Notes: a model not told the origin generated them from the letters alone. A stretch of DNA of 53,718 nucleotides from a virus (IMGVR_UViG_3300031414_000029), one strand, 5' to 3'. Shown: positions 262 through 41,360, counted from the stretch's first letter. Made by a program: numbers and translations.

Positions 262-1269
262 ATGATTAAGAAGAAAAAGATTCTGTTGCTGGTTGATGGT
301 GACATGGTTGCCTTTTCCCACGCAGCGGCGGAAGAATACGGCAAGGAATCTGATGAAATCAGCTTTGCTAAAATTCAAATGTCGATGGAAGCCAAGATGG
401 ACTTTATGTCCAAACGTCTTCAGGCTACAGAAGTTATCACTCTTATTTCTGGTGATAACAATATGCGAAACATTATTGCGTCAACGTATAAAGCGAACCG
501 CGATGGTGTTTGGCGTCCTGAGAATCTCCGTAATGCCAAAGCTGCTTTAATGGCTGGATACGACGGAATCAAGATGGATTATCTGGAAGCTGATGACCTT
601 ATTGGTATCCTCGCTCGAAACAAAGTTGAGATGGAAATGGGTAAGCGTGGTTTAATTAAATCACTGCACACAACTCGCCTTCTCACTACCGACGATTACG
701 ACGAAATTTATATCGCATCGTTGGATAAAGATTTGAAACAAATCTGCACTCGTCCGGGTGGCCCTGTGATTAAGCACTACCGCTGGGAAACAGGAACGAC
801 AGGTGAAAAGATTTCTCACACAACTGGATTTGGTGAACTTAATTGTATCATCAAAGACAATGGCAAAACCAAGAAGAAAGAAATTAAGGGCGCTGGCCCT
901 AAATTCTTCCTCTGGCAGTTGCTTGTTGGTGACCCAACTGATGGTGTCATGGGTTGCGGTATCAGTGAAACTAAGATGTATAAAACTGGTGCTAAAGCTG
1001 GTGAAGAATATCAGAAGCGTTGCGGCGTCGGTGCTATTGAAGCATTCGAATTGCTCGACAAAATTGACAACTATGCAGACGGTTTGAAAGCCGTAGCCAC
1101 ACAGTATGTCATGCGCTTTGGTGATGGTTGGCAAGAACATCTTCTCACAAACGGCCGATTGCTCTACATGTCAAATACGGTGGCGGAAGGTAGCAAGGTT
1201 AGACTCTGGCATTACCAATCAAATGTGCTGGAATATTTCGACCTTAAAACCAAAACTGTAACAGCGTAG
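262..1269 (+). CDS. 5'-3' exonuclease / flap endonuclease (T7 gp6 / Pol I 5'-nuclease family)
   Basis: ILLLVDGDMVAF N-terminal acidic motif, LEADDLIG and SLDKDL acidic clusters, H3TH-like GVGAIEAFELL. Confidence 0.8.
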   Translation: MIKKKKILLLVDGDMVAFSHAAAEEYGKESDEISFAKIQMSMEAKMDFMSKRLQATEVITLISGDNNMRNIIASTYKANRDGVWRPENLRNAKAALMAGYDGIKMDYLEADDLIGILARNKVEMEMGKRGLIKSLHTTRLLTTDDYDEIYIASLDKDLKQICTRPGGPVIKHYRWETGTTGEKISHTTGFGELNCIIKDNGKTKKKEIKGAGPKFFLWQLLVGDPTDGVMGCGISETKMYKTGAKAGEEYQKRCGVGAIEAFELLDKIDNYADGLKAVATQYVMRFGDGWQEHLLTNGRLLYMSNTVAEGSKVRLWHYQSNVLEYFDLKTKTVTA

Positions 1270-4804: not shown

Positions 4805-6813
4805 TGGCAGATTTGGGCGAAGAATACGACAACACAGTCGTCTTCCACTTATTAAAGTTTTATGGCGACTTACTCAAAGTTAGCCGTTCAAGATTCTGCC
4901 TACAAACTCTGCCAATACTGCGTAAGTATATCGCGAGCAGTCCAGAAATTATTCGTGATTACTACGAAGCTCTTGACGCAGAGATTGAAGGTCAGGGCTT
5001 AAAAGATAACGCTGTGTTGCGTTCACTTGTCACAGCTCAACGAGAAAGATTGGAAGCTGGTGACTCAAAAGATTCCACGGCATACGCCAGTGAAATCGAA
5101 AAGATGATTAAGGATGGTAAGACAGACCGTGTACCCGGTTCGACTATTGAGGCCGACACTGCTGAGCACGATGCTACCTCTGAACTCATTGACAAAATTC
5201 TTGATGACCCGCTAAACGTAGACCCAACTGTAATTTCTAAAAGAGTTGCAGATGAAGTCAGGAAGATTTTAACTTCTAGCTTTGAGCGGTTCGGCAAATG
5301 GTCATTCCATATTCAAATGGGATTCCCATTCCAGTCGCAGGATTTCCACGATGTGATATTCGATGTGGGGCAGCAAATTGTTGACGGTAAAATTGACCGT
5401 GTAATCATAACAATTCCTCCACGACATTCGAAGACACAACTGCTATCTATTGCGCTGCCTTTGTATTCTTTCTGCCACAACGTAACCAGCCACAACATTA
5501 TTACTTCCTATGCGGAAGACGTTGTGTTGGAATCATCTGGCTATATTCGTACTGTGATGCTTGACCCATTGTTCCAGCGCATATTCCCAAATGTTCGTAT
5601 CGACCCCGGCAAGCGTTCGCTTGAGCGTTGGGGTACAACGAAACAGGGCGTAATGCATGCTGTTCCAACGGGCGGTAAAATGACAGGTAAAGGTGCTGGC
5701 TTACTGGCTCCTAAATACTCTGGCTGCTTTGTCGTAGATGACGTTATCAAACCAAAAGATGCGTATTCCGACACAGTGCGAATGGAAATAAATGACCGTT
5801 ACGATAACACATTTATGTCTCGTCTTGCTAACGATGGTGTGATTACAAACCCAGATGGAACCTTGCAGAAATGTGCGAGAACTCCAATGGTTATCATCAT
5901 GCAGCGTGTTCACGATTCAGACCTTGTTGGTTATCTGTTGCGTGGCGGTTCGTCTGACAAATATCATTACCTCAACATTCCTGCAATTGTTGAGAAAGAT
6001 ACTGGTTCTGCCGAGTATTACGACAGGCTCATTAAGAAGCAAAACTATACGCATGCGATTCCAATCTTATATGATTTGAAACGAGATGCCGAAAAGTCTG
6101 CTCTATGGCCGTCACGTAAAAGCCTCGAATCTCTCGAAGCAATGAAGTTGGCAAACCCGTACACTTACAACAGTCAGTATGCAGGCGACCCAACGGCAAA
6201 TGGTACTGGATTAATTAAGGAAGATTGGTGGCGTGAATACGACCCTGAGACTTTCGATTATTCCAAAATTGTTCGCTCGTTTATTACAGCGGACACAGCT
6301 TCGACTGCCAAAACATATTCAGACTATGCAGTGTTGAAACATTGGGGCGTCACGAAAGAACGTGATGTTTTCTGTCTGGATATAATGCTCGGCAAGTATG
6401 AAGTACCAGAGCTTAAAAAAGCTGTAATTGATTTCTGGAATAAGCGTAATAAGTTTGTCTTGTCAGCGCCTTGTTTAATTCCACGTGCATTGTACATGGA
6501 AGATAAGTCGTCTGGACAATTCCTTAACCAAGAGTTTGCTCGCGCAGGTAATATCAGGTTGATGCCTGTACCGCGTGACAAATCTGGTGGCGATAAGGTT
6601 GCACGATTCCTGAATACCATTCCATATTTCTCAACTGGTAAAATATTCTGGCCTGCTGGTCACGAACATATTGACCATGTTAAACGAGAAATTCTTGGAA
6701 TGACTTCTCTTGGCTCCGGCACTGGTCATGATGACTGCTGCGATAATGTCTCTGATATGGTCGCAATTGAATTCTCCGGCATAAGCGCCAATTACTCTAG
6801 TTGGGTTGACTAA
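4804..6813 (+). CDS. Terminase large subunit
   Basis: 669 aa directly upstream of the portal gene. ATPase-like IPPRHSKTQL and CFVVDDVIKP (Walker B-like), and a C-terminal nuclease-like FITADTAST...HDDCCD. Confidence 0.8.
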   Translation: MADLGEEYDNTVVFHLLKFYGDLLKVSRSRFCLQTLPILRKYIASSPEIIRDYYEALDAEIEGQGLKDNAVLRSLVTAQRERLEAGDSKDSTAYASEIEKMIKDGKTDRVPGSTIEADTAEHDATSELIDKILDDPLNVDPTVISKRVADEVRKILTSSFERFGKWSFHIQMGFPFQSQDFHDVIFDVGQQIVDGKIDRVIITIPPRHSKTQLLSIALPLYSFCHNVTSHNIITSYAEDVVLESSGYIRTVMLDPLFQRIFPNVRIDPGKRSLERWGTTKQGVMHAVPTGGKMTGKGAGLLAPKYSGCFVVDDVIKPKDAYSDTVRMEINDRYDNTFMSRLANDGVITNPDGTLQKCARTPMVIIMQRVHDSDLVGYLLRGGSSDKYHYLNIPAIVEKDTGSAEYYDRLIKKQNYTHAIPILYDLKRDAEKSALWPSRKSLESLEAMKLANPYTYNSQYAGDPTANGTGLIKEDWWREYDPETFDYSKIVRSFITADTASTAKTYSDYAVLKHWGVTKERDVFCLDIMLGKYEVPELKKAVIDFWNKRNKFVLSAPCLIPRALYMEDKSSGQFLNQEFARAGNIRLMPVPRDKSGGDKVARFLNTIPYFSTGKIFWPAGHEHIDHVKREILGMTSLGSGTGHDDCCDNVSDMVAIEFSGISANYSSWVD

Positions 6814-7001
6814 TGAGTGTGATTACTCGTATTGACTCTCGGAGCAAAAACAATTCCGGCTTCGAAATTCGTTGCGCGGAAACTGGCAAAACGCTGGTGT
6901 TTGTCGAAGCTCTGGGGCACGAAACTGAACTCCGTATTAGTTCTAGCGATGCAGTTGAAATCGTAAAGTCTAATGGGGTTAAGCTCAAAAGGAAGAAATA
7001 A
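6813..7001 (+). CDS. Hypothetical small protein
   Basis: ORF track; ATGA overlap with terminase. Confidence 0.5.
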   Translation: MSVITRIDSRSKNNSGFEIRCAETGKTLVFVEALGHETELRISSSDAVEIVKSNGVKLKRKK

Positions 7002-8321
7002 ATGTCTTCCAGAAGAAACCGGTCTAAACCAAAAGGTTCGACTAAACTCGGTGACGGACTTGAAAACGTCATCAGTGGAATGGGTGGAGAAAAAGATAAG
7101 TCTGTGTATAACACATGGACTTTCTCCAATAAGAATGCCGACTATCGACAACTCATGCATCGCTTCCGCGAAGATTGGGTTAGTCAGAAAGTCTGCACAA
7201 TCGTTCCACAGGATATGACGCGTAACTGGCGCAAGATTAGTACGCCTGAAGGCATAGAAGCAGACAAGAAATTGAAACTGCGTAAGCTGTGTCGTGAAGG
7301 CTACCAATGGGCCAGACTCTATGGAACCTCGTTCATGCTCCTTGATATTAAAGGAACAGGTGCGTTGAATACTCCATTGCGTTTGGATAATTTGAAGAAG
7401 GGCTGTATCAAATCCCTGAGAATTATTGACCGTTCACGCTTATTCGCGGCTGGTAACATCGTGCTGGATGCACTTTCACCTCACTATGGTTTGCCTGAGT
7501 ATTACACTCTTGCAGGCAATCCGGGGTGGATTCACCACACGCGCTTCTTGCGTTTCGAAGGAACCGAACTTCCACTGTTCGAATTCCAACGTAACCAATG
7601 GTATTCGGATTCGGTGTTGATACCACTGATGAACACCATTGACCAGTTCTACACAACAGCCGCTGCTGCTGCGCAACTTGCACAGGAAGCAACCATTGAT
7701 GTAGTAACGGTCGCCGGACTTCAATCCCTTCTGACAAATCCAGAAGGTGAACGTTCCGTGATGAAGCGATTCCGATTAATGAAGCAAGCTAAGAGCCTTT
7801 ATAACGTTCTTATTCTTGATGACTCGGAAGAATATAATACCAAGTCCATCGCCCTTTCTGGCGTAAAAGATTTGATTTGGGAATATCTTAAAATCGTAGC
7901 TGCTGCGGTTGGTATTCCTGCGACTCGTTTCCTGTCTGCTTCTCCTGATGGTATGAATGCCACTGGTGAATCTGACCTCGTAAACTATATTGACCTTCTC
8001 TCTGGATTACAGACAGCAATCTTTGAACCTCGTTTAGAGATTCTGGACCAACTGGCTTGCGCACATTTCGGCATTTCCGAATACACTTATGAGTGGTGTG
8101 ACATATTCCCAGAGTCGAATGTTGATAAAGCCAAGCGTGCTCTTGATACAGCAAATGCACTTAATCTTTTAGTTGAATCGGGAACTATTACCCGACAGAA
8201 TGCGAACAAGATTCTTGAGCATAGCCGTGTATTTGGCATGTGTGAAATCGAAGCCGCTCCAACAACTCCACCACAAGCTCCAAAGGATAGTGGTAATGCA
8301 AAACAAACTGGTTCCAGTTAG
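7002..8321 (+). CDS. Portal protein
   Basis: 439 aa, positioned between terminase and scaffold. The N-terminal basic tail and overall pattern resemble DUF1073-type portals. Confidence 0.7.
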   Translation: MSSRRNRSKPKGSTKLGDGLENVISGMGGEKDKSVYNTWTFSNKNADYRQLMHRFREDWVSQKVCTIVPQDMTRNWRKISTPEGIEADKKLKLRKLCREGYQWARLYGTSFMLLDIKGTGALNTPLRLDNLKKGCIKSLRIIDRSRLFAAGNIVLDALSPHYGLPEYYTLAGNPGWIHHTRFLRFEGTELPLFEFQRNQWYSDSVLIPLMNTIDQFYTTAAAAAQLAQEATIDVVTVAGLQSLLTNPEGERSVMKRFRLMKQAKSLYNVLILDDSEEYNTKSIALSGVKDLIWEYLKIVAAAVGIPATRFLSASPDGMNATGESDLVNYIDLLSGLQTAIFEPRLEILDQLACAHFGISEYTYEWCDIFPESNVDKAKRALDTANALNLLVESGTITRQNANKILEHSRVFGMCEIEAAPTTPPQAPKDSGNAKQTGSS

Positions 8322-12411: not shown

Positions 12412-12924
12412 GTGGATATTCAGGAACGCGAAATACAGGCGATGAAAGAAATCGTCGATGTGTGTGTTGGCATAGAACGATACACATATGAAATGCAACT
12501 TAATGCTCCACGTCCCAATGGCGATTATGCAGCGGTTAAGTGCCTATCAAGTTCTAATCCGGGCTTCGATGAAACGCGTGTTGTATCAATTGACGGCGTG
12601 GATAAGTTTCGAACTCGCGGTCTTAGAATCCTGACATTTTATATCCTCTTTAGTCGGGAAGGTCAGGAGTATATTGATTTCGATAATTCATTTTATCGAC
12701 CCGATGTTAATGCTATTTTGCGCAAACATGGTTTTGCAGCACTAGGCAAAGAGCCGTTAAATCTGGCTACAGTTCAGCTTGAAACTAATTGGGAAGTTCG
12801 TAAAGGCGTGAAGATGCAATTCAATGTCTTACGCGAACAAATCTCCGACATTGGTATCATGTCTGATGCAGTTGTCGATGGCAAATTCATAGACGGCGAC
12901 CAAGTCGTCTTGATTAAAGGATAA
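12412..12924 (+). CDS. Neck / tail-completion position protein (GTG start)
   Basis: ORF track; abuts neighbours. Confidence 0.5.
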   Translation: MDIQEREIQAMKEIVDVCVGIERYTYEMQLNAPRPNGDYAAVKCLSSSNPGFDETRVVSIDGVDKFRTRGLRILTFYILFSREGQEYIDFDNSFYRPDVNAILRKHGFAALGKEPLNLATVQLETNWEVRKGVKMQFNVLREQISDIGIMSDAVVDGKFIDGDQVVLIKG

Positions 12925-12927
12925 CGA

Positions 12928-14376
12928 ATGTCCGTTCCAATTTCCGACCTCGTTGACGTACAAATTGCGATTGCTCCAAACGCAGTTGCTGTTGACGGTT
13001 ATGGTCCAATTTCGTTCATGTCGAAAGAGTTCCAGCCAAATGCTGCTGAAAGTCAGATTCTGATTTTCACTAGCAAGAAAGCTGTGGAAGACCAGTTCCC
13101 AACTGGCGGCACTGAGATTCTGAAAGCTGCGGAAGCGTGGTATTCTCAGAAGCCAACTCCAAAGACATTCATTGTCGGCTCTATCTCAGCTCAGTCTGGT
13201 CAGGCTGCAACTTCTGGTAAGCTCGTTGGTGGCGCTGCCGCTGTACTGGCGGACCTGAAAGCAATCACTGCTGGCACTATGGCACTGTCTGTAAACGGCA
13301 CTGTTCAGAACGTCACAGGTTTAGACCTGTCAGGCGCTGCTGATTTGGCGGCTGTTGCAACTCTGCTGGAAGCTCAACTGACTGGCGTGTCTGTAACTCA
13401 GTCTGGCGGTGTGTTCACTGTCAAAACTGTTGCTACTGGTGCATCAACTGTCATTGAAATTCCTGCAACCGCTCCGCTGACTACAGCGTTGAAGTGGACA
13501 AGCACCACTGGAGCAACTTCGACTCCGGGTTCTGATGCAGTTGGTATCACAACTGACCTCGCTCGCATGTCTAATGCTGCCATGAAAGCTAAGCAATCTT
13601 TCTTCTATGTTGGTGTTGAACGCTCTCTGCGTGGCACTTCACAGATTCTGGAAGTTGCTGCATGGGCTGAGTCAAATGGTAAAGTGTTTGGTCACGCGTC
13701 TTCTGATTCGTCTGTTCTGAAAATTGGTAACACTACCAACTATTTCTATCAGGCCAAACAGCGTAACTTCATGCGCACCATTAACGTCTATGACGCTTCA
13801 AGCGGTGGCGTTGAATACCCAGAAGTCTCAATCCTCGGTCGTGCTTCAACTGTCAACTTTAACGTTGCAAACTCCGCACTGATTCTTGCATACAAGAAAG
13901 GCCCAGCAATCACAACTGCTGACCTGACTTCTGGCGAGAAGACTGCGCTGGAATCTTACAACGGTAATGCCTTCATTGATGTTGATGGCAACGTTCTGTT
14001 CTGGAACGGTAAGATGGCGGATGGCACTTGGTTCGATACAGTGCAGGGTACTTCTTGGCTGGGCGCTAAAGTTCAGGCAAACGTATTCAATCTGTTCTAC
14101 CAGTCAACCACGAAAATTCCGTGGACTGAAACTGGTGTTGCTCTGGTTAACCAGCAAATTACGCTGGCACTCGAACTGGCTGTTACCAACGGTTTGATTG
14201 CTCCGGGCTACGATAACGAAGGGACCTTCTACCCAGATGGTTACAAAGTTATCTCAACAGATTTGTCTCTGCTGCAATCTCAGAAAGGTGCGCGTATTTG
14301 GGAAGGTTCTTCCTTTATCGCTATCGGCTCTGGTGCGCTTCAGGGTGCAGTTATTTCAGGCAGCTTCGTACAATAA
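12928..14376 (+). CDS. Tail sheath protein
   Basis: 482 aa immediately upstream of a tube-sized gene, the chaperone and the tape measure. Expression-biased codons. Confidence 0.7.
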   Translation: MSVPISDLVDVQIAIAPNAVAVDGYGPISFMSKEFQPNAAESQILIFTSKKAVEDQFPTGGTEILKAAEAWYSQKPTPKTFIVGSISAQSGQAATSGKLVGGAAAVLADLKAITAGTMALSVNGTVQNVTGLDLSGAADLAAVATLLEAQLTGVSVTQSGGVFTVKTVATGASTVIEIPATAPLTTALKWTSTTGATSTPGSDAVGITTDLARMSNAAMKAKQSFFYVGVERSLRGTSQILEVAAWAESNGKVFGHASSDSSVLKIGNTTNYFYQAKQRNFMRTINVYDASSGGVEYPEVSILGRASTVNFNVANSALILAYKKGPAITTADLTSGEKTALESYNGNAFIDVDGNVLFWNGKMADGTWFDTVQGTSWLGAKVQANVFNLFYQSTTKIPWTETGVALVNQQITLALELAVTNGLIAPGYDNEGTFYPDGYKVISTDLSLLQSQKGARIWEGSSFIAIGSGALQGAVISGSFVQ

Positions 14377-14387
14377 AGGTGCGCTAA

Positions 14388-14843
14388 GTGAAACAGTATT
14401 CCTTTTATAATACCGACCTGCTGATTGATGGAAGCCGCGTTGACGGCTTCACTGCTGGTCAGGCAATTATCACAGCGCGTCGTAACATTCCACAGCATCT
14501 TCCAGTGATGGATGCATACGGTAAACTTGCCGTTGCAACCACTGCTGATTTGTCTGGTGTGATTACATTCCCGCTGCTGCAAACTGCCGACTGGAACCAG
14601 ATTCTGTATGAGAAAGCTCAGCTTACTCAGGCTACAGGTCTGTCCGGTAATAAGTCTCTCTGGCAACCAATTCAGATTCAGGTTGTCGATAAGATGGGTG
14701 ATATGCTGGTTAACGGTGTTAACGGCGTTATCCTGCAACAGCCTGCAATCCAGCGTGGCGTTTCGTTCACATCAAACCTGTGGGCGATTTACGTTGAGCG
14801 TCTTCAGTTTAAGACTGGTTCTTATCCTGAAGTTGGCGTTTAA
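14388..14843 (+). CDS. Tail tube protein (GTG start)
   Basis: 151 aa between the sheath and chaperone genes. Confidence 0.6.
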   Translation: MKQYSFYNTDLLIDGSRVDGFTAGQAIITARRNIPQHLPVMDAYGKLAVATTADLSGVITFPLLQTADWNQILYEKAQLTQATGLSGNKSLWQPIQIQVVDKMGDMLVNGVNGVILQQPAIQRGVSFTSNLWAIYVERLQFKTGSYPEVGV

Positions 14844-14862: not shown

Positions 14863-15315
14863 ATGCCTTGTGAACTGCTTACGCGGGAAATTGAAAACGC
14901 TGCTGGCGAAAAACGAATTTTCACAGTGCGTCAACTTCCTCCAACCAAAGCACTCGAATTGCATGTTGAAATCGTAAACAAGTTGGGAAGCACTAGCTTC
15001 CCTCTTATCGACAACAACTACAATTTCGGTGACATTATTACGTTGATGCGTGCAAACGAACATCCCGTAGTATCTGAATTAATGAAGCGAGTTGTTTGTC
15101 TCGCCAACTACGAAGGACATGAGATTAAGCCTCATAACTTCGACCTCTCTTTCGACGGCGAGCTGATGATGGTTTGTAGAGCTTTTGCATTTGTCCTAGA
15201 GGCAAACTTCAAAAGTTTTTTCAAGCAAGGGCTCGAAATGAACGAACAGAAACGATTGGAGGCGGAGGCGCTATCAGCGCAGGCCAAGCAACAGAGTTCG
15301 AGTCCGAAGACTTAA
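14863..15315 (+). CDS. Tail assembly chaperone, short form (gpG-like)
   Basis: Canonical position upstream of the tape measure. Contains the slippery site T_TTT_TTC. Confidence 0.65.
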   Translation: MPCELLTREIENAAGEKRIFTVRQLPPTKALELHVEIVNKLGSTSFPLIDNNYNFGDIITLMRANEHPVVSELMKRVVCLANYEGHEIKPHNFDLSFDGELMMVCRAFAFVLEANFKSFFKQGLEMNEQKRLEAEALSAQAKQQSSSPKT

Positions 15316-15491
15316 CAAGTCAGTTCCCGGATATTAGCTACTTTTTGCATCGCCCGGTAATTGAAGACAGTTCGTTGTGTAGTTTGAAAGAACTCAGCGA
15401 CGGAACTTATTCTCTTGTTGACCTGCTTCTGTTTCACGACATTCTCGACCTGAGAAAGAAATTAACTCCACCAGTTGAATCGGAACAGTAA
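14863..15491 (+). CDS. Tail assembly chaperone, -1 frameshift long form (gpGT-like)
   Basis: The -1 frame is open from 15180 to TAA at 15489-15491 (overlapping the tape-measure ATG). It fills the otherwise non-coding 15316-15490 gap. Confidence 0.6.
15216..15222 (+). other. -1 programmed frameshift slippery heptamer TTTTTTC
   Basis: agT TTT TTC in the 0 frame (K S F F K). Confidence 0.6.
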
Positions 15492-18400
15492 TGGCAAGCA
15501 AAAAAGAAATGTTGGGCATGGGTGTTGAGACACTCCGTATGCTCGGACTTGAGGCGGGTTTGAATTTCGAACCCGGCTTATCAAAGTCTAAAATGGTTAT
15601 GCAACTTGAACAGCATCAAGCGTCAGGTTGGATGGAAACCAATAGCCAACTTCTCCATGCAACTGAGGAAGGTGGTTTCGACCACATGCAAGGCTTCACC
15701 GGACACGAAGGTGAAACCCTTTCAGATGCAGCACGCGTTGCTCAATCATTAGCTGGTGCTGGCTATACAGAAACATTCCATCATGTAATGAGTTCTGGAC
15801 TCGACCATCATGTCGAAGCGCTACACGGTTATATGGAAAAGCTGGGTGTTTCGTCTGACGATGTTTGGAAACATATGCCAAAGGCTAATCCAAACATTGC
15901 ACCACAACCGTTTAATTATCTGAAAGGATATTTGAACAACCATTGGAATGATTATCAGGATATTATGCCACCATTACAGGGGCATTATGCTGGTGATATT
16001 ATGGGTGAATACGCTACCAATAAAGGTAACGTAGGTGATTCTTATAATCATCTGGCCCACATGTATTTAAATAAAGCTGCATACAACAATGAGCAATCGT
16101 ACAACCACGATGTTTCAACTGTTGCATCGCGTTTGGCTTCGGCAATGGGAGGCCAATTCCTTGAGGTTGCACACGCTTCTGCCACTGGCGGTAAAGTTGG
16201 TTACCATTCAATTCTTCCTCAATTGGGTTCTGATGTTGTTTCTGGAACTCAGCACGCGCGGGAACCTTTAAATGCAGCTGGTTTACCTCTTGGTTCTTAT
16301 GGTTCTGCTGTGGGCGACCGTGGCCAATACTCGCTTGTAGCTTCTCTGACAGGCAGGCCAGAAAGTTCGGATGCGACTTCAACAGCAATCCGTCAGGAAG
16401 TATCGGAAACGATGCGTTCTCTTGCTTCGTCTTATAAAGGCGGTGGCGAGACAGGTATGAATCCACATCGTCATCAAACTTCTGATTACGATATGATTAT
16501 GGATTCGGCAACTCGATATGTTGATATTGAGGATGCCCGCTCAGGTTACAACAACTTGGACTCCGACCGGTACTCTGGTTCTGCTATTCGTTCTGTTGTT
16601 GAAAACAAATACGACCAGTTAGAATCTCAAACAGTGCAGTCGTTTGACCCTGCAAGCCGTGCTCGTGCTGCAATGGCTTCATTCAAACCTGACCAAGTTG
16701 GTTCTGGATTTACTGCACAGTTTGGTGAACCTCAAAACTGGAACTCAGCTCGCTCTCGTATTGAAAGCAAACGCATTGCGGATTTGGATGCAGCTCATGC
16801 AAACTTCCGTGATGTTGCAGATGGACAGCGATACAATCCTGTTCATTTCCATAATCTCGAACAGGGTTCACAGGAATGGTTTGACTTCCGCAGTCAACAT
16901 GACATTACTGGCTCAACTGTTGGTGCGCTTCTTGGTTCATCTGAATACAACAGGCCGTGGGCTGCTTTAAATGACCGTCTTGGATTAGAGCGTGGTGAGA
17001 AGTCTCGTTCGAATTTCCAAGAAAGAATCTTCGCACTTGGCCATAAGCGTGAAGAAGAAGCTCGTGCTCGTGTGTCGGAAAGATTAGGTCAGTCAATCGA
17101 ACAGGTTGGCGCAATTACAAATGACCAATATCCCGGCATGATGTATTCACCAGATGGATTAATTGGTGATGACGCATTGTGGGAGCATAAAGCTCCAGAG
17201 CGTGCTGGTAAATTTGCGGACTTGTTATCTGGAGACCATCCAGACTACATGGACCAGATTCAAATGGGTATGACTCTCTCTGGCAGAAGTCGTACTTTGT
17301 TCTCTCAAACTATTGGTAACGAAACTCGTGACCAGTGGATTGACCACGACCCAAGCTGGTATGAGCGAAATCAGAATCGACTTGATTCTATTCGTGGACG
17401 ACTGGCAGCAGGACGTGAGTTCGTAGAGAACAACAGTCATCTTGAGGGACGTGACCTTATCAATGGTGCGCGTGCTGCAATGCAGGGTGACGGAATCTGG
17501 AAAGATGTTCGTCAGAAATCCGACCGTGGTTATTCTCCAACTGCTGGTACTCCAAATGACCCGTACATTGGTCTTGGTGGTTCAACATATTCAGACGCTG
17601 TTCAGCCTTCGAATTATATTCCTAATTTCGTAACCGGTGCTGGCAACGGATTGATGAATGTGCCACAACAGGACGGTGCCGGTACAGGCGCTGAGACGGG
17701 CATGGCGCTTGCGGTTAAGCAAGGCATACTGGCGGCAAGGGACGAGGCCAAACGCAGCGAGGCTGGCGCTGGCGCTCAATCTGCCGCATTCGGTCAGGAA
17801 GATGCCGACTTTGACGACCTCGGAAATCCTCGCGGCTTCAGCCGGAAACGGATTGATGACGCATTCAGCGACGGCAACGGCGGGGGCGGTGGTGGTGGAC
17901 GTAAGCCGCCTCCTAGCTGGATGGATAACTTCGGACGTGGGATTGAGTCGGGTATTATGTCCGGCTCTCTCCGTGGGCTACAGGGCGGCTTCATGCGTGA
18001 GCTGTCACAAGCTGGCCCAATTGGACAGACCATCGGATTAGGTATTGGTGCCACTTCGATTGGCGGTGAAATCATGTCTACAATGAATGATTATCTCGGA
18101 ACCGCTCAGGACTTTGGTTCAAACAATCCAATCCAATTTGATGCACAGCAACAAGGCATGGAAATGCTGGGGCTTAATAAAGCTCAGGCTCAACATGCAA
18201 ACGAGGCTGTACATTCTGCTTATAACAGAATGGCAAACGGCGACCCTTCTGCTGCTGTACAAATGTCCGTTGCAACTCGTGGTTTACTGTCTTTAGCCGA
18301 TGTGCGTAGTAGTGGTGGCGACCCTGTTAAGTTAGCGGCCACTTTCAGAGAACGTGCTCGGTCAAGAGGCTGGAGTCAGGAACGTATTGCTGGCGCTGCT

Positions 18401-19219
18401 GAAATGGCTGGTCTTGATGGATTTGCTCGTACTGTTAATAACAGTGACCAAATTCAAAATGCTGCTGAGGGACTAGATGATACTCGCGGTAGACAAGATA
18501 CAAGCGATTTTAATCAAAGTGTGCGTCGAGATAATTCCGTCCGTGTTGTTGTTTCACCTGACTACAATGTTCAACGATACGGTGCTCAGAACTACGACCG
18601 TTTAGTTGATGGCATGGCCGAAGGTATGGCTGGTGCTTATAACAGAGTAGACAGTCTTGAAAAGGCAACTCATGCGGGAAGTCTGGCAGAAGCAACACGA
18701 CAGCTAGAGTCTGGAGGACGGGACTACGATAATCAGGGTAATCCGATTGTCAGTAAAACTGGTGCCAAGTATGGTATGCAGGTTCTTCCTTCAACAGCGC
18801 GTGACCCAGGCTACGGAATTAAACCAGCAACGAGTGATACACCGGAAGAATACAACCGTGTTGGGCGCGACCTTTTAAATAAAATGGTAGGGCGTTACGA
18901 TGGCGACTTGGACAAAGCTGCGGCTGCTTACACTGATGGAGCAGGAACCGTTGATGCTGCTGTTCGTGAGCATGGTGCTGATTGGTTAAAGCATATGCCA
19001 GCTCAGGCTCAGAAACGTGTCAGCGACTTGCGTAAATTAGGTGCGGGTGCGGATACCTTCCGGCAAACTGGCTCCAGCGGTGCAACTATTGGCACTGTTA
19101 ATGTAAATGTTACTGCAACAGTAAATGGGCGTGAAGCAAGAGCGACAGCTAATGTTAACGGTCAATCGCAGTCACACGAAATTAATGTTGGCAATGGTTC
19201 GGTACAACAACGCCGCTAA
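15491..19219 (+). CDS. Tape-measure-position multidomain protein with an internal YqaJ-type PD-(D/E)xK nuclease domain and a C-terminal lytic transglycosylase domain
   Basis: Position after the frameshifted chaperone. aa 455-625 read LEQGSQEWFDFRSQHDITGS...YSPDGLIGDDALWEHKAP (YqaJ signature). aa ~1065-1170 read QLESGGRDYD...GAKYGMQVLPSTA (SLT). Gly run GNGGGGGGGRK. Confidence 0.75.
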   Translation: MASKKEMLGMGVETLRMLGLEAGLNFEPGLSKSKMVMQLEQHQASGWMETNSQLLHATEEGGFDHMQGFTGHEGETLSDAARVAQSLAGAGYTETFHHVMSSGLDHHVEALHGYMEKLGVSSDDVWKHMPKANPNIAPQPFNYLKGYLNNHWNDYQDIMPPLQGHYAGDIMGEYATNKGNVGDSYNHLAHMYLNKAAYNNEQSYNHDVSTVASRLASAMGGQFLEVAHASATGGKVGYHSILPQLGSDVVSGTQHAREPLNAAGLPLGSYGSAVGDRGQYSLVASLTGRPESSDATSTAIRQEVSETMRSLASSYKGGGETGMNPHRHQTSDYDMIMDSATRYVDIEDARSGYNNLDSDRYSGSAIRSVVENKYDQLESQTVQSFDPASRARAAMASFKPDQVGSGFTAQFGEPQNWNSARSRIESKRIADLDAAHANFRDVADGQRYNPVHFHNLEQGSQEWFDFRSQHDITGSTVGALLGSSEYNRPWAALNDRLGLERGEKSRSNFQERIFALGHKREEEARARVSERLGQSIEQVGAITNDQYPGMMYSPDGLIGDDALWEHKAPERAGKFADLLSGDHPDYMDQIQMGMTLSGRSRTLFSQTIGNETRDQWIDHDPSWYERNQNRLDSIRGRLAAGREFVENNSHLEGRDLINGARAAMQGDGIWKDVRQKSDRGYSPTAGTPNDPYIGLGGSTYSDAVQPSNYIPNFVTGAGNGLMNVPQQDGAGTGAETGMALAVKQGILAARDEAKRSEAGAGAQSAAFGQEDADFDDLGNPRGFSRKRIDDAFSDGNGGGGGGGRKPPPSWMDNFGRGIESGIMSGSLRGLQGGFMRELSQAGPIGQTIGLGIGATSIGGEIMSTMNDYLGTAQDFGSNNPIQFDAQQQGMEMLGLNKAQAQHANEAVHSAYNRMANGDPSAAVQMSVATRGLLSLADVRSSGGDPVKLAATFRERARSRGWSQERIAGAAEMAGLDGFARTVNNSDQIQNAAEGLDDTRGRQDTSDFNQSVRRDNSVRVVVSPDYNVQRYGAQNYDRLVDGMAEGMAGAYNRVDSLEKATHAGSLAEATRQLESGGRDYDNQGNPIVSKTGAKYGMQVLPSTARDPGYGIKPATSDTPEEYNRVGRDLLNKMVGRYDGDLDKAAAAYTDGAGTVDAAVREHGADWLKHMPAQAQKRVSDLRKLGAGADTFRQTGSSGATIGTVNVNVTATVNGREARATANVNGQSQSHEINVGNGSVQQRR

Positions 19220-19283: not shown

Positions 19284-20393
19284 ATGTGGCTCAGACGAGT
19301 TCAGGTCATCATAACAAATAAAGATGACCCAAGTAAGAAGACAGTGTTTGAGAAGCACAGCATTGAATTTGAAGTGCGTTCCATAATTGGTTGGGGTGCT
19401 GACACAGCAACCGTAACTATTTATAACCTGTCGTTGGAAGAAGTTAAGTTCCTACAGAATAAAGAGTTCGGCGATTTGCCAGTAGAAATTCGTGCTGGTT
19501 ATGCAGATATGCTTGCTTCTGGTGGAATCAACAACAGAACAACTACCAGCTCAACGAAGACTTCAAGCAGCGGTTCGGTCATTGAAATCAATGATGGTGC
19601 TGTATTGCCTACAATCTTCTCTGGTGTTATTACAAATGCTGTTGGATTTAAACGCGCACCTGAACACATTACGACTCTGTTCTGTGTTTCTAAAGCTGCT
19701 ACAAATTCATCAACGTTTATCCAAATGCAGGATATTCCTGCTGGCGCTACTTTGCGCAATGCAATTAAATCTATGTGTGGTGATTACGGTTTTAATACTG
19801 TGTCGGCATTCGGAATTAATGATGCAGATTTGGATGTTGTTCTTCCTACAGGTCGTGTATTCCATGACACCTTCATAAACGAATTTACTGCCTTATTAGG
19901 CGAACACAATTTACGGTTCTACATGGCAACATCGGAAGTTCAAATATTCCCTGATACCTATGGCGATGCTGATGCAGTTAGCCGAATGTCGAAAGACCGT
20001 GAACCAATAAAGATAGATGCCAACTCAGTTATCGGTACGCCTGTTGCGGGAATCGGTATATTCGATTTGGATGTTTATCTTCGCGCAGATTTACAGCCCG
20101 GAATGATTATTGATATTTCGCCGTTGCTTGGGACAGACCTACTCGCAAACGGTGTTGTGAATGTCAACAATCAGAAACAGCTTCTGAACTATGACGATTC
20201 TGTTTTCCGTTACGGTATGCGCGACACGTACATGATTGAATCTGTAATCTCTTATGGATGCACTCATGACGAAACTTTCCAAACCTCTATCCACGGCATT
20301 CTGGATGGCATGGCTTCCAATGGATTGAACGAATCCAATTGGCAAAACTGGTATGCCAGAAGTGGTATGAGCATGACAAGTGAAGGCTTCTAA
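19284..20393 (+). CDS. Baseplate hub / tail protein (gpD/XkdQ-like position)
   Basis: First gene after the tape measure. IEFEV...ATVTIYNLS pattern. Confidence 0.45.
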   Translation: MWLRRVQVIITNKDDPSKKTVFEKHSIEFEVRSIIGWGADTATVTIYNLSLEEVKFLQNKEFGDLPVEIRAGYADMLASGGINNRTTTSSTKTSSSGSVIEINDGAVLPTIFSGVITNAVGFKRAPEHITTLFCVSKAATNSSTFIQMQDIPAGATLRNAIKSMCGDYGFNTVSAFGINDADLDVVLPTGRVFHDTFINEFTALLGEHNLRFYMATSEVQIFPDTYGDADAVSRMSKDREPIKIDANSVIGTPVAGIGIFDLDVYLRADLQPGMIIDISPLLGTDLLANGVVNVNNQKQLLNYDDSVFRYGMRDTYMIESVISYGCTHDETFQTSIHGILDGMASNGLNESNWQNWYARSGMSMTSEGF

Positions 20394-30535: not shown

Positions 30536-30882
30536 AAATTTAATTATAATATTTTTTTTTTTATCCGGTACTTGGGCGATTCGATTAATGTGCCAATTTA
30601 TAAATTTATTTTTGGAGTCGAGGAACAGAGGCCCAACAACGTCCTGTCGGACTTAAAATACGGTCCCTAAACCCTTTTTCTCTCACGAGCCTATCGGCTC
30701 TCAAAGTTCCAAAGCAAAGTAGCTCCCACTTCGTGGGCACAGGTCAACACAATCTCCATCAGTAGCGAGCCTAGTAGGTATCTCAATGAGAAGGCTACGC
30801 TAGTTAAATCCGTTTCATTGGGAATCGGAGCTGGTTGTTAGCTTAGTTGATTGTGCATTCTGACTACTAATTGGAGCTTACC

Positions 30883-32775
30883 ATGACTAATTCAAACGTT
30901 GTTAAATCTGTTGTTCCTGCTGTTACTTCTGCTATCTACCGTGCTAAAGAACAACAGGCATACATGCAGCCACAGACTTGTGCTATTGCTGCCTTAGCCA
31001 TGTTCCACATGATGACGTCTTTCACACGTGATGACGTTGTACCGGCTATCTCACTTGTTGCTCTTGCTGATGCCTCAATCAAGAAGGCTAACTCAACTAA
31101 CAATGACCTGAAAGCGTTCCACTACAATGACCCATCCATCAACCTGATTGGATTGGCTAAGCATCTTGGCTTCCTGTCAATGGCTGAAGATAAGTCATTC
31201 ACTATGACAGAGCGTTGGATTGAGCTTGTATCAACTAAAGAAACTTGCACTCCATTCACTGAGCAGGTTACTGAACTCAATCGTCGTAAGCCTTTCATCA
31301 AGGGTGGCAAACGTAAGCCTTCCAAACTGATGACAGAAGCAATCGACTTCCTGCAATCAACTGAGTATCACGTTGACTCTGCAATGGTTGACATTGTTGG
31401 TGACGTACTTGGCATGTCACATGAAGTTCCAGCTGTGATTCAACAGGAGCTGCATGTTTGGAACAACGCTCGTAACATGGCTAAAGAAGATGTGCTGTTC
31501 TCAGATTACTTCGCTGATAACCGTGGTCGTCTGTATCATGTAGCATGTGCTGGTCCAAATCCACAGTCATCTGACTTTGCTCGTTCACTGTATTCTCACA
31601 ATGTTGAGAACATCGTAGAACGTGGTTCAGAAGCATACAACATGTTCATGGCAGAGCTTGATGATGTAGCTGGTGGCAAATGGGTTGAGTCTAAGATGTT
31701 GACTCGTGTTGCTCAGAATCCAGTTGGTGCATTGAAACACATGCTGTCATCTGGTGATGCTCCTAAGAAGCCATTCACTTACATTCGTCTGGCATTGGAT
31801 TGGTTCAAGTTTGAAACAACTGGTGTCTGTGATTCACGCATTGGCTTTGGCTTAGATGCTAAATGTTCAGGCACTCAGTATCTGGCATTCATTGCAGGCA
31901 ACATGGAAATGGCTCGTGCAACTGGTTTAGTCAATTCAGACTCCAAAGCATCTGACCCATACCAGCTTTCATTGGTACAGTTGCTGAAACTGTTAGAGAA
32001 GTCATCAATGAATCCATCTGATGAAATTAAGGCTAAGTATTTCAATCCGAAAGACGGTCGTAACTTCATCAAGACTCCATACATGGCAGTTCAGTATGGT
32101 GGTGGTAAAGCTGCATTAACTGGCGACAAAAACTTTGCAACTACAGTTATCAGCATCTTTGGTGCAGACAAACTGGAAGCATTTGCAGAGCTGGCTGTTG
32201 AAGCTGTTAAGGCTGCACTTGGTGAGAAGATTAACCTGTTCATTGCTAAAGCGATGGAAGCAGTTAAAGCCAAATGTGAGAAAGAATCTAAGCTGTACAT
32301 TGATTACCGTCACACAGATGGTCAGGTTGTTCATAAGCCTTGCTATCCATCTCGTGCAATCTGTGATGCATTCAGCATTCGTGTTGATTCACAGACTCGT
32401 GTAATCTTTGGGAACATCGTTGAAGAAACTGAGTGGAAGATTCGTGAAACTCAGCCAACTGTTGAAGAATTCGCTCGTACCTTTGTTGTTAACTACATTC
32501 AGGGTATTGACGCGCTGGTGGCTCGTACTGTTGCTAAGTATGCTAAGAAAGCTGGTCTTCGTGGATTCACTTCTATTCACGATTGCTTCCGTTGCTGCTT
32601 AGCAGATGCTCCAAAAATGATGGCTGTGATTCGTGAAGCATACATTGAAATCTTTGTACGCAACAATCAGTTCGAATCTCTGTCCAAGCAGATTGGTGGC
32701 ATTGATATGTTCCATACCAATATCGTTACAGAAGAGCTGTTGAATTCAGAGCACGCTTATTACTTCTGTCAGTAA
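30883..32775 (+). CDS. Single-subunit DNA-directed RNA polymerase (T7-like), compact 630 aa
   Basis: GLDAKCSGTQYLA (T7 motif A region DGSCSGIQH), RNFIKTPYMAVQYGGG (motif B), TSIHDCFRC (motif C HDSF). GGAG lies 8 nt upstream of ATG 30883. Confidence 0.9.
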   Translation: MTNSNVVKSVVPAVTSAIYRAKEQQAYMQPQTCAIAALAMFHMMTSFTRDDVVPAISLVALADASIKKANSTNNDLKAFHYNDPSINLIGLAKHLGFLSMAEDKSFTMTERWIELVSTKETCTPFTEQVTELNRRKPFIKGGKRKPSKLMTEAIDFLQSTEYHVDSAMVDIVGDVLGMSHEVPAVIQQELHVWNNARNMAKEDVLFSDYFADNRGRLYHVACAGPNPQSSDFARSLYSHNVENIVERGSEAYNMFMAELDDVAGGKWVESKMLTRVAQNPVGALKHMLSSGDAPKKPFTYIRLALDWFKFETTGVCDSRIGFGLDAKCSGTQYLAFIAGNMEMARATGLVNSDSKASDPYQLSLVQLLKLLEKSSMNPSDEIKAKYFNPKDGRNFIKTPYMAVQYGGGKAALTGDKNFATTVISIFGADKLEAFAELAVEAVKAALGEKINLFIAKAMEAVKAKCEKESKLYIDYRHTDGQVVHKPCYPSRAICDAFSIRVDSQTRVIFGNIVEETEWKIRETQPTVEEFARTFVVNYIQGIDALVARTVAKYAKKAGLRGFTSIHDCFRCCLADAPKMMAVIREAYIEIFVRNNQFESLSKQIGGIDMFHTNIVTEELLNSEHAYYFCQ

Positions 32776-40829: not shown

Positions 40830-41360
40830 ATGTCTCCAAGTGAAATAAAAAGCCAGATTGAGCGGGCAACAAACATCCGTAACCTCTGTGTCCGATTTAA
40901 TAATTTCGAGGCATGGATTGATGCGGATGAATATGCAGATACCATCAGTATGGCTGATTTTCTGGAATTCCATTGCGATTTGACAGAAGAACAGGCCAAA
41001 AATCTCGTTGATGGTGACTTCATATTTGTTCACGCAGAAGGTTTGGCTGCAAAATTCATTAAAAATGATTGCTTCGATAAATTGGGCTATGAAAACGCCT
41101 CAATCTTTGCTTTAAATAGCTCAGATGAAGCGGCGATAGCCGGATTAAGTATTGGGATTGACCCAAACAAACTGTCAGATGCATATGTCGGGCAATATGA
41201 TAATTTCGAAGCATTTGTTGAAGAACGCTGGGACGAACAGAACCCAGAACTTCCTGAATATATCAGAAGGTACATCAGCTATGAAGCAATCGCGACAGAT
41301 TGGAAAGCGTGCGGAGACTTCTCAGAAGTCGATGGCTATGTCTTTGCCAATACAGCCTGA
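40830..41360 (+). CDS. ArdA-like antirestriction protein (DNA mimic)
   Basis: Acidic protein. The C-terminus ELPEYIRRYISYEAIATDWKACGDFSEVDGYVF parallels the ArdA pattern P..L..YIDY.A...DL...G.F....G..F. Confidence 0.55.
   Translation: MSPSEIKSQIERATNIRNLCVRFNNFEAWIDADEYADTISMADFLEFHCDLTEEQAKNLVDGDFIFVHAEGLAAKFIKNDCFDKLGYENASIFALNSSDEAAIAGLSIGIDPNKLSDAYVGQYDNFEAFVEERWDEQNPELPEYIRRYISYEAIATDWKACGDFSEVDGYVFANTA

Follow-up and report, generated by a model that had tools for sequence, protein, structure and literature searches.

Enzymes of the lambda exonuclease, LHK-Exo and YqaJ family are free cytoplasmic proteins of 200-300 residues, and lambda-exonuclease-type enzymes that carry the R28 arginine require a free double-stranded DNA end. 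Tape measures and other ejected phage proteins are known to carry wall-degrading domains. The tape measures T5 pb2 and mycobacteriophage TM4 Tmp have embedded enzymatic domains that are peptidoglycan hydrolases, and T7 gp16, an ejected head core protein of a podovirus, has an N-terminal SLT domain and no nuclease. T4 gp2 and Mu N, which are delivered from the virion and target the ends of an incoming linear genome ahead of phage gene expression, are not nucleases. Other contractile machines deliver nucleases that are toxins against target-cell DNA, either as separate cargo or as spike fusions (the T6SS DNase effectors and the Pne1 nuclease of MACs). We know of no tape measure or ejected protein that carries a DNA-processing enzyme, and none was found in the searchable literature. 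Polyvalent proteins combine several unrelated enzymatic domains, frequently including lysozyme-type domains, and have been proposed to be co-delivered with DNA and to act early (Iyer et al. 2017, PMC5512222).

The locus described here lies in a window of 53,718 nucleotides (the whole stretch of DNA that was analysed) from a Chaseviridae (Loessnervirus-like) myovirus. It encodes a virion protein of 1242 residues in which a nuclease domain is embedded at residues ~448-667, rather than standing free as in YqaJ family enzymes. The domain has in common with lambda exonuclease, LHK-Exo and the YqaJ family its fold, its sequence profile, the D, ExK and QxQ motifs and an arginine aligned with R28. Unlike in the two-component recombinases (Red-alpha/beta, RecET and YqaJ/YqaK), the gene has tail genes as neighbours and no adjacent gene for an annealing protein.

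Like T5 pb2 and TM4 Tmp, the protein is large, is encoded after a putatively frameshifting chaperone gene, includes a muralytic SLT domain and has an orthologue in virions, but it differs from them in its additional DNA exonuclease, in matching no tape-measure protein (TMP) family and in a model that resembles globular beads on a string. It shares with T7 gp16 a length of >1200 residues, an SLT domain and a phage background with T7-like RNA polymerase and replication genes, and differs in having its gene in a myovirus tail module, in the C-terminal placement of the SLT domain and in the presence of the nuclease. T4 gp2 and Mu N differ in not being part of a tail protein, and no homology to them is expected. 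As with the T6SS and MAC effectors, a contractile sheath-tube machine would expel the nuclease from its lumen; unlike these effectors, the domain is of an end-dependent exonuclease type and belongs to the polypeptide that fills the tape-measure slot in a true phage. Similarity to the polyvalent proteins lies in the two enzymatic domains of one polypeptide. Unlike them, the protein occupies a structural tail slot; the zincin-like processing peptidase usual in polyvalent proteins was not detected in it by Pfam scans, and the paper on polyvalent proteins makes no mention of YqaJ, lambda exonuclease, SLT or tape measures (PMC5512222).

Gene neighbourhood and architecture of the 1242-residue protein

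The gene order at the locus is tail sheath, tail tube, chaperone with an in-phase slippery site, the 1242-residue ORF and baseplate hub, with the following features:

12928-14376, + strand: tail sheath gene (phrog_205, E 1.4e-91; syntenic with the SSEM1 and Y2 sheath genes)
14388-14843, + strand: tail tube gene (phrog_280, E 3e-29; the syntenic SSEM1 gene is annotated 'putative tail tube protein')
14863-15315, + strand: tail assembly chaperone gene, G-like (phrog_11820, E 7.6e-61)
15180-15491, + strand: -1 frame extension of the chaperone, GT-like (open for 103 codons; stops where the large ORF starts)
15216-15222, + strand: candidate -1 slippery heptamer T_TTT_TTC in the chaperone gene (correct X_XXY_YYZ phase)
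15491-19219, + strand: multi-domain virion protein of 1242 residues in the tape-measure slot (ORF list and translation; full-length match to phrog_19855 'virion structural protein')
19284-20393, + strand: baseplate hub gene (phrog_196, E 2e-44; the Y2 orthologue is annotated 'baseplate hub')

The original prediction placed the protein at the tape-measure position, after a G/GT chaperone. The chaperone is recovered here, in that the ORF at 14863-15315 matches chaperone PHROGs and its orthologues carry PF21822 (Phage_TAC_15), and the in-phase heptamer within an open -1 frame suggests that frameshifting occurs at this site. The position also stands: the ORF lies between this chaperone and the hub, the same slot is occupied by four distant homologues (P0090, P0110, P0170 and P0183), and no other tape-measure candidate was found among the window ORFs.

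The tape-measure label nevertheless rests on position and not on homology or fold. Pfam yielded no TMP family, not even when the non-enzymatic parts were scanned at E<=10, and the best PHROG match is 'virion structural protein'. A profile search of the PDB retrieved no tape-measure chain, its matches being confined to the nuclease and SLT regions. Queried with either end of the protein, tblastn returned Chaseviridae-type records and, elsewhere, SLT-only matches, so that homology gives a tape-measure identity no support. A TMP-like fold is likewise missing from the AlphaFold model, which consists of helical modules and long disordered linkers rather than an extended coiled coil, and a Foldseek search with a 1200-residue model left the N-terminal and middle helical modules unmatched. 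Without the two enzymatic domains ~900 residues are left, which would span ~135 nm if helical, in a monomer model that is not one coiled coil; reported tail lengths are 110-166 nm. A strongly hydrophobic segment is absent (maximum Kyte-Doolittle mean over 19 residues of 0.97), which, like the missing TMP match and coiled coil, counts against the ejection and resection model favoured below.

The protein is a cysteine-free chain of folded modules on flexible linkers, in which we distinguish the following regions:

15722-16606, + strand: N-terminal folded, mostly helical region, residues ~78-372 (AlphaFold block, pLDDT mostly 70-90)
16832-17491, + strand: lambda-exonuclease/YqaJ-type PD-(D/E)xK nuclease domain, residues ~448-667 (predicted from sequence and fold matches)
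17492-18076, + strand: Gly-rich, predicted-disordered linker, residues 668-862, with a GGGGGGG run (pLDDT mostly <50)
18077-18541, + strand: conserved helical domain, residues 863-1017 (AlphaFold block, pLDDT mostly 80-92)
18680-19036, + strand: SLT lytic transglycosylase domain, residues ~1064-1182 (PF01464, E 4.6e-7)
19037-19216, + strand: C-terminal tail with three predicted beta strands, residues 1183-1242 (model secondary structure, low confidence)

The linker is 21% Gly and ranks among the least conserved regions of the protein, and the helical domain reaches 54-64% identity in sliding windows inside residues 851-1000. Relaxed Pfam scans (E<=10) found no family in the N-terminal 450 residues, including the region at residues ~78-372, nor in the linker, the helical domain or the C-terminal tail. 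The beta tail may interact with the baseplate hub. We further note the order of the modules along the chain, which runs from the N-terminal helical region through the nuclease, the Gly-rich linker, the helical domain and the SLT domain to the short beta tail.

A lytic transglycosylase had been proposed for the C-terminal part, and PF01464 (SLT) indeed matches there above its gathering score (29.8 bits against a cut-off of 21.3). The catalytic glutamate is E1073 at 18707-18709, and both E1073 and S1074 are invariant in the orthologue alignment. Foldseek matches this part to Slt70-type enzymes and, weakly, to a core-protein chain of mature T7 (9jyy_I, E 0.75, probability 0.98).

The embedded nuclease domain

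Window positions 16853-17365 encode residues 455-625, reading NLEQGSQEWFDFRSQHDITGS...SPDGLIGDDALWEHKAP..., and this segment was originally proposed to be a YqaJ-type nuclease. All coordinates then given are exact, including those of D555, E565-H-K567 and the SLT residue Glu1073, and the proposal is supported by both profile and structure comparisons. Pfam PF09588 (YqaJ) matches residues 462-599 over profile positions 1-149 of 150, at 38.4 bits (gathering score 22; E 1.9e-9), and PHROG families of RecE-like exonucleases match the domain at E about 1e-15 to 1e-16. Against the PDB, phmmer finds LHK-Exo (3syy) at E 9e-9, and the family profile finds 3syy at E 3e-15 and lambda exonuclease at E 9e-8. 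The AlphaFold model of residues 440-655 has a pLDDT of 91.2 and a pTM of 0.87, and its best Foldseek matches (3sz4, 3syy, 3slp, 1avq and 3sm4; E 1e-9 to 3e-8) are LHK-Exo and lambda exonuclease, with target-normalised TM-scores of 0.62-0.78. A chance match of motifs is ruled out by these E-values and by the fold. The NCBIfam model TIGR03033 (phage_rel_nuc) scores 42.4 bits (E 7e-11), below its cut-off of 68.05; by sequence, the domain is thus related to this subfamily of free-standing enzymes and is not a member of it.

Alignment to 6m9k/1avq pairs R467, D555, E565 and K567 with lambda exonuclease R28, D119, E129 and K131, R28 being the 5'-phosphate-binding residue of lambda exonuclease. The motifs are located as follows:

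16889-16891, + strand: R467, aligned to lambda exonuclease R28 (invariant in orthologues)
17153-17155, + strand: D555, aligned to the metal ligand D119 of lambda exonuclease (invariant)
17183-17191, + strand: E565-H566-K567, an ExK motif aligned to E129/K131 of lambda exonuclease (invariant)
17246-17263, + strand: Y586-M-D-Q-I-Q591, aligned to the YMAQVQ motif of lambda exonuclease (Y586, D588, Q589 and Q591 invariant in the orthologue alignment)

On these comparisons, the domain belongs to the PD-(D/E)xK nucleases of the lambda-exonuclease/YqaJ type, and its predicted catalytic set is complete. It has no Fe-S cysteine cluster, which assigns it to the lambda-exonuclease type rather than the Cas4/AddB type; a Cas4-type Fe-S nuclease is ruled out for a domain without cysteine.

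The architecture of nuclease and SLT domain is family-wide in Chaseviridae. We found 87 homologues of the 1242-residue protein, nearly all of them full-length and most with both precomputed Pfam domains, which rules out an assembly or gene-fusion artefact. Conservation of the catalytic residues, on which the original proposal depended, was assessed in orthologue alignments of 24, 35 and 37 rows, whose members include orthologues 40-93% identical to the window protein. R467, D555, E565 and K567 are invariant in 36 aligned orthologues across this range of identity, and T473-G-S475, G517, H518, E521, R525, Y586, D588, Q589 and Q591 are also invariant in all three alignments. The five homologues that have no precomputed Pfam hit (P0003, P0004, P0012, P0045 and P0083) retain all catalytic residues in the alignment and are not cases of domain loss. 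In far more distant large homologues (~960-1530 residues), which score 34-76 bits against PF09588, the D, ExK and QxQ motifs are kept in 11 out of 11 and the N-terminal arginine at the R467 position in all except P0096 (10 of 11).

Residues 526-625 form the best-conserved stretch of the whole protein, with 70-78% identity in sliding windows against a mean of 51%, and the dN/dS of the nuclease domain is 0.03-0.12. The nuclease is thus under strong purifying selection across the family. A degenerate relic is ruled out by the invariant catalytic residues together with the low dN/dS.

Another pattern shared by the large proteins is the absence of cysteine. None of the 98 large proteins (the window protein, 86 homologues and the 11 distant ones) contains a single cysteine; given the cysteine frequency of the window, the chance of this for the window protein is 2.5e-6. 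Free-standing relatives of 200-300 residues, collected by an exhaustive HMMER search with the isolated nuclease domain, are abundant; 122 out of 126 contain cysteine, and their first 220 residues hold 2.8 cysteines on average. In these relatives ExK is most often followed by Cys, which is not so in the window protein. The absence of cysteine from the large homologues and its presence in the cytoplasmic relatives indicate that its evolution was constrained in the manner of a virion or exported protein.

Virion presence and possible roles of the nuclease

Presence in virions is shown for an orthologue: the protein of Escherichia phage 4HA13 (P0027, 47% identical) was detected with 64-67% coverage in CsCl-purified virions, in a preparation that was not perfectly clean since SSB, a non-structural protein, was also present (PMC9699118). 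The architecture had been thought undescribed. This is upheld for the searchable literature, in which we found no paper describing an exonuclease domain in a tape-measure-slot protein or its function. It does not extend to databases, where the domain match is already visible in precomputed annotation and one GenBank record names an orthologue 'putative endonuclease'.

A conserved exonuclease domain in a virion protein of the tape-measure slot suggests that Chaseviridae phages probably inject a DNA-end-processing enzyme together with their genome. The role that we favour, with a probability of roughly 40%, is 5'-to-3' resection, directed at the ends of the terminally redundant genome as it comes in. 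By analogy with tape measures, the protein would be housed in the tail lumen and expelled C-terminus first upon sheath contraction. The SLT domain would then cut peptidoglycan during expulsion, and the N-terminal half would enter after it, together with the genome. The N-terminal half of tape measures is nearest the head, and would thus be nearest the leading DNA end. Refolded nuclease domains of the expelled copies, possibly as a toroidal trimer like lambda exonuclease and LHK-Exo, would load onto the incoming phage DNA at its 5'-phosphorylated end. Ahead of all phage gene expression, they would degrade the 5' strand of the direct terminal repeat (~3 kb) and leave a 3' single-stranded tail. 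Such a tail would be a poor substrate for RecBCD, and its annealing to the repeat at the other end could circularise or concatemerise the genome.

This model is in keeping with the linear, non-permuted genomes of Chaseviridae and their ~3 kb terminal repeats (ICTV profile, PMC12842549). The arginine aligned with R28 also points to linear ends as the substrate, rather than circular host DNA. Several observations weigh on the other side. A separate FEN/T7 gp6-like 5'-3' exonuclease is encoded in the replication module at 262-1269, and T7-type terminally redundant phages are not known to need an injected exonuclease. Resection of the phage's own leading end would be risky, as the related SSEM1 record has its RNA polymerase gene near the start. 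No annealing protein of the RecT, Red-beta, Erf or Sak type was found in the SSEM1 annotation or in the 20 larger ORFs of the early/middle region, where SSB alone was recognised. In a variant of the resection model that we regard as quite unlikely, the nuclease would be tethered to an ejected trans-envelope conduit formed by the same polypeptide and would processively degrade the leading repeat (~3 kb) on its 5' strand during DNA entry. Phosphodiester hydrolysis would then pull the first kilobases inward independently of protein synthesis and would at the same time leave a RecBCD-resistant 3' tail, primed for annealing to the other repeat.

Other roles can be considered for an ejected nuclease. 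It could be a weapon at entry against DNA of the host, a plasmid, a prophage, a competing phage or a defence system, a role that would resemble that of the nuclease effectors of other contractile injection machines. The predicted catalytic set is intact and under purifying selection, the contractile tail would deliver the nuclease within a protein whose orthologue is found in virions, and multi-domain proteins injected with DNA are thought to be common conflict effectors (PMC5512222). The phage also has other genes for counter-defence at the entry stage, such as that of an ArdA-like anti-restriction protein at 40830-41360. We consider such a weapon doubtful, however, as the R28-type arginine implies a need for a free double-stranded end that a circular chromosome or plasmid does not offer, only a few copies would be delivered per virion with the phage's own DNA end as the nearest one, and host DNA could be dealt with by two other enzymes once expressed, the separate exonuclease and an HNH endonuclease. 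It is unlikely, too, that the domain is a clamp with minimal or regulated-off catalysis, which would grip the leading DNA end so that expulsion from the tail drags the DNA in and the end is shielded from RecBCD, a function like that of T4 gp2 or Mu N. Such a clamp would explain conservation of the R28-aligned arginine and of the whole DNA-end pocket, and tape-measure topology would place the head-proximal half beside the DNA end; the lack of a RecBCD inhibitor in the SSEM1 annotation and the 20 larger early/middle ORFs is weak evidence in the same direction. Binding alone, however, needs no invariant D555, E565, K567 and QxQ across very distant homologues, and the clamp model gives no account of how the domain would be stopped from cutting adjacent DNA in the virion.

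Alternatively, the nuclease may act late in the producer cell, on recombination, concatemers or host DNA while the large protein is free or chaperone-bound, with its presence in virions being incidental. This would agree with the normally cytoplasmic role of YqaJ-type enzymes in phage recombination, with the abundance of their short free-standing forms and with expression alongside the late tail genes, as judged from gene position. We hold it to be improbable, given the lack of cysteine in the protein and in 97 of 97 large homologues versus the cysteine-containing cytoplasmic relatives, the stable retention of the fusion in the same slot over deep divergence, and the exonuclease already present in the phage's replication module. 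The proposal with almost no chance of being right is that the protein is a tail fibre whose likeness to nucleases is irrelevant or degenerate. Most GenBank records do name the orthologues 'tail fiber', and orthologues have been described as the main tail fibre protein (PMC8762354). Yet Pfam scans, including relaxed ones at E<=10, found no fibre-like domain or repeat, the gene sits between the putatively frameshifting chaperone and the baseplate hub, and the relatives SSEM1 and Y2 have three separate tail-fibre genes downstream of the large ORF. The SLT domain with its invariant catalytic glutamate and the invariant nuclease motifs are further points against a fibre, and gene position and domain content together rule out this identity. 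The labels 'tail fiber' and 'hypothetical protein' carried by a large share of the listed GenBank orthologue records therefore need correcting.

Consequences for phage entry

If the nuclease is active and ejected, end processing or attack on foreign DNA would start at entry, before the phage genes are expressed. Resection of the incoming ends, which is the role we favour, would if true offer a new explanation of how a genome that is linear and terminally redundant withstands RecBCD and becomes competent for replication. An entry motor, if true, would amount to a new way of bringing a phage genome into the cell, and tape measures would gain a new function. An active, ejected nuclease would also show that a true phage can use its tail lumen to deliver catalytic cargo with DNA as its target. 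Cultured relatives infect E. coli, Erwinia, Pantoea, Yersinia and Pectobacterium, which makes the case directly testable.

The tail module and its large protein

The gene order sheath-tube-chaperone-large ORF-hub matches the annotation of the relative phages Y2 and SSEM1, and the tail-module order is also kept around four distant homologues (metagenomes and one genome assembly). Neighbouring genes of the large ORF were assigned by PHROG scans.

Genes and sequence elements in the window
262-1269, FEN/T7 gp6-like exonuclease, replication module
1320-1838, HNH endonuclease, replication module
1835-2599, ATP-dependent ligase, replication module
12412-12924, tail completion protein (PHROG)
12928-14376, sheath (PHROG)
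14388-14843, tube (PHROG)
14863-15315, tail assembly chaperone (PHROG)
15180-15491, -1 frame, 103 codons open, its stop falling exactly on the large-ORF ATG
15216-15222, in-phase slippery heptamer T_TTT_TTC within the chaperone gene
15491-19219, + strand, large ORF, 1242 codons
19284-20393, baseplate hub (PHROG)
30871-32775, RNA polymerase gene

The original prediction had a G/GT chaperone precede the large ORF, and this is borne out by the PHROG chaperone, the in-phase heptamer and the open -1 frame, which as read from the sequence form the classic arrangement. The tape-measure position likewise stands, with the chaperone on the 5' side and the hub on the 3' side, while the tape-measure identity is purely positional: the large ORF matches no TMP family in Pfam and no TMP chain in the PDB. 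No other tape-measure candidate is found among the window's ORFs. Homologues of the non-enzymatic parts are confined to Chaseviridae-type records, and a megablast search with the locus hits Loessnervirus (Chaseviridae) phages of Erwinia and Pantoea alone, the nucleotide identity being 71-78% across parts of the gene.

Predicted modules of the large protein (model of residues 43-1242, mean pLDDT 65, confident within modules only)
Residues ~78-372 (window 15722-16606), N-terminal folded region, mostly helical, block pLDDT mostly 70-90
Between the N-terminal region and the nuclease, disordered linker
Residues 448-667, nuclease
Residues 668-862, Gly-rich disordered stretch (21% Gly) with a GGGGGGG run
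Residues 863-1017, helical domain, pLDDT 80-92
Residues 1064-1182, SLT domain
C-terminal, three beta strands

The SLT domain lies at the C-terminal end, as had been claimed, with its catalytic E1073 (18707-18709) and S1074 invariant in the alignment. The N-terminal region has no match in Pfam or the PDB and is found in Chaseviridae-type records only; several of its His, Asp and Tyr residues are invariant. The protein has no strongly hydrophobic segment, the highest 19-residue Kyte-Doolittle mean being 0.97 at about residues 844-866. Presence in the virion is confirmed for an orthologue only: in CsCl-purified particles of Escherichia phage 4HA13, LC-MS/MS detected the phage's protein P0027 (47% identical) at 64-67% sequence coverage, second in the top-twelve protein list, from a preparation that was not perfectly pure, SSB also being present (PMC9699118).

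Identity and conservation of the nuclease domain

The predicted YqaJ-type nuclease lies exactly where it had been placed, at 16853-17365 (residues 455-625), with D555 at 17153-17155 and E565-H-K567 at 17183-17191. The similarity is real: in Pfam, PF09588 (YqaJ) covers residues 462-599, practically the entire profile, at E 1.9e-9, scoring 38.4 bits where the gathering score is 22. The domain also hits three PHROG 'RecE-like / exonuclease' families at E ~1e-15 to 1e-16, and NCBIfam TIGR03033 ('lambda-exonuclease family protein') with an E of 7e-11, under its curated cut-off; judged by sequence, the domain lies outside the TIGR03033 subfamily. Sequence searches of the PDB return LHK-Exo (3syy, E 9e-9) with the domain alone, and LHK-Exo (3e-15) and lambda exonuclease (9e-8) with a profile of 24 family members.

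Structure prediction further supports this fold. An AlphaFold model of residues 440-655, made with 36 homologues, has a pLDDT of 91.2 and a pTM of 0.87, and among PDB structures Foldseek places it nearest to LHK-Exo and lambda exonuclease, with E 1e-9 to 9e-9 and a target-normalised TM-score of 0.62-0.78. The Cas4-like nuclease R354 of mimivirus ranks next, with RecE and Cas4 far weaker, and in a viral structure library free-standing YqaJ enzymes top the list after one Chaseviridae orthologue. HMMER aligns R467, D555, E565 and K567 with R28, D119, E129 and K131 of lambda exonuclease, and Y586-MDQIQ with its YMAQVQ motif. The domain belongs to the YqaJ / lambda-exonuclease fold family, though outside any two-component recombinase locus. 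A Cas4/AddB-type Fe-S cluster nuclease is excluded, since the domain has no cysteine.

A word-index search finds 87 homologues (40-100% identical, nearly all full-length), most with precomputed PF09588 and PF01464 matches. D555, E565 and K567 are invariant across alignments of 24, 35 and 37 rows, the first of which deliberately took in members without a precomputed YqaJ match. Also invariant in all three are, among others, Q458, G459, W463, R467, T473-G-S475, G517, H518, E521, R525, S553-P-D-G556, H566, Y586, D588, Q589 and Q591. Residues 526-625 are the best-conserved stretch of the protein, with 70-78% identity to the window sequence in sliding windows against a mean of 51%. In comparisons with three metagenomic relatives the domain's dN/dS (Nei-Gojobori) is 0.05, 0.03 and 0.09, and with SSEM1 and Y2 it is 0.10-0.12; dS nears saturation in the more distant comparisons. 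HMMER, run exhaustively over 1.84 billion representatives, gives 1134 matches; among the best 23, 16 are proteins of ~1190-1300 aa in which the domain sits at a similar internal position. More large proteins (960-1530 aa) stand lower among the matches listed, the rest of which are free enzymes of ~140-640 aa at roughly 27-41% identity. Eleven large proteins from among the most distant all keep the D, ExK and QxQ motifs, and 10 of them keep the N-terminal Arg. Because of these invariant motifs, top conservation, low dN/dS and motif retention in distant homologues, we reject the view that the nuclease is a relic.

We further note mosaicism in this gene. Its N-terminal 440 residues share ~71% identity with the Y2 and Fifi44 groups alike, the nuclease segment has its nearest match in the Fifi44/Aioli group (78%, the Y2 group giving 68-71%), and the C-terminal 413 residues share 74% identity with the Y2 group and only 48% with the Fifi44 group. 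Against the relative locus L007, dS is 3.0 in the nuclease segment vs 0.4-1.0 in other regions. Between phages ST32 and phiEcoM-GJ1 this gene is 76% identical and the neighbouring genes listed in that paper's table 98-100% (PMC6266442). Among distant loci, the baseplate modules hold a RelA_SpoT (PF04607) gene (L004, 17583-18629) and a PAAR-motif gene (L009, 14239-14535). L004 and L005 carry several additional small genes between the nuclease-bearing protein and the baseplate genes. In L009, ~2.7 kb without a called gene (4909-7669) separates the chaperone region from a 962-aa nuclease-bearing ORF, possibly reflecting a split or interruption of the large gene.

Possible roles of a nuclease encoded in the tail module

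Cysteine is absent from the window protein, all 86 retrieved homologues and all 11 distant large homologues; at the 1.03% Cys frequency of 16 other window ORFs, a protein of 1242 residues would lack it with a probability of 2.5e-6. The window's sheath, tube and two fibre proteins likewise lack it. Free-standing YqaJ relatives have Cys in their first 220 residues in 122 of 126 cases (mean 2.8), and right after the ExK lysine Cys is their commonest residue (57/126), where the window protein has Ala. This pattern indicates that the nuclease evolved under the kind of constraint that virion or exported proteins typically face, which argues for travel with the virion protein and against work solely in the producer cytoplasm; a role in the producer cell is therefore very unlikely.

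An intact, selected lambda-exonuclease-type site, a tail-module slot, an orthologue in the virion and a C-terminal SLT domain are established. Lambda exonuclease, a toroidal trimer, requires a 5'-phosphorylated dsDNA end and removes the 5' strand processively. By analogy with other long-tailed phages, the large protein would occupy the lumen of the tail, its C-terminus lying at the baseplate, and would be the first to be expelled when the tail contracts. The wall would be cut by the SLT domain, and the nuclease, lying in the head-proximal half, would come in beside the leading DNA end. Our preferred reading, a tentative one at a probability of about 0.4, is that the nuclease would resect the phage's own genome ends, giving 3' tails able to escape RecBCD and to anneal via the terminal repeats. 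Genomes of the Chaseviridae are linear and not permuted; they have direct terminal repeats of ~3 kb and carry T7-like genes for transcription and replication (PMC12842549). The window represents a complete genome assembled as a circle (unit length 53,591 bp), and its bases 1-127 are identical to 53592-53718, as in a circularised assembly, so the repeat has probably been collapsed and the window, with the RNA polymerase gene at 30871-32775, is a permuted form of the physical genome.

Several points count against own-end resection. No annealase is recognised in the scanned window ORFs or a relative's annotation. The FEN-type gene in the replication module (262-2599) gives the phage a second, unrelated 5'-3' exonuclease, and to our knowledge T7-type phages manage without an injected one. 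An ejected weapon against foreign DNA is unlikely, given that the enzyme type is end-dependent and the copy number low, and a largely non-catalytic DNA-end clamp is decidedly doubtful with an invariant catalytic triad.

GenBank names for the orthologues are inconsistent: most records read 'tail fiber', 'virion structural protein', 'tape measure' or 'hypothetical', others 'tail tube initiator protein', and one 'putative endonuclease'. That the protein is a tail fibre deserves almost no credence. The nuclease and SLT architecture is already visible in precomputed domain matches, and the host protein behaves like tape measures with embedded enzymes, or else like 'polyvalent' injected proteins, the survey of which names neither YqaJ nor tape measures (PMC5512222). 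In line with the original prediction, literature searches found no account of a tape-measure nuclease, nor of one in this family. The biological role is one that we infer rather than demonstrate; the architecture itself, a nuclease within a protein of the tail module, is real, family-wide and undescribed.
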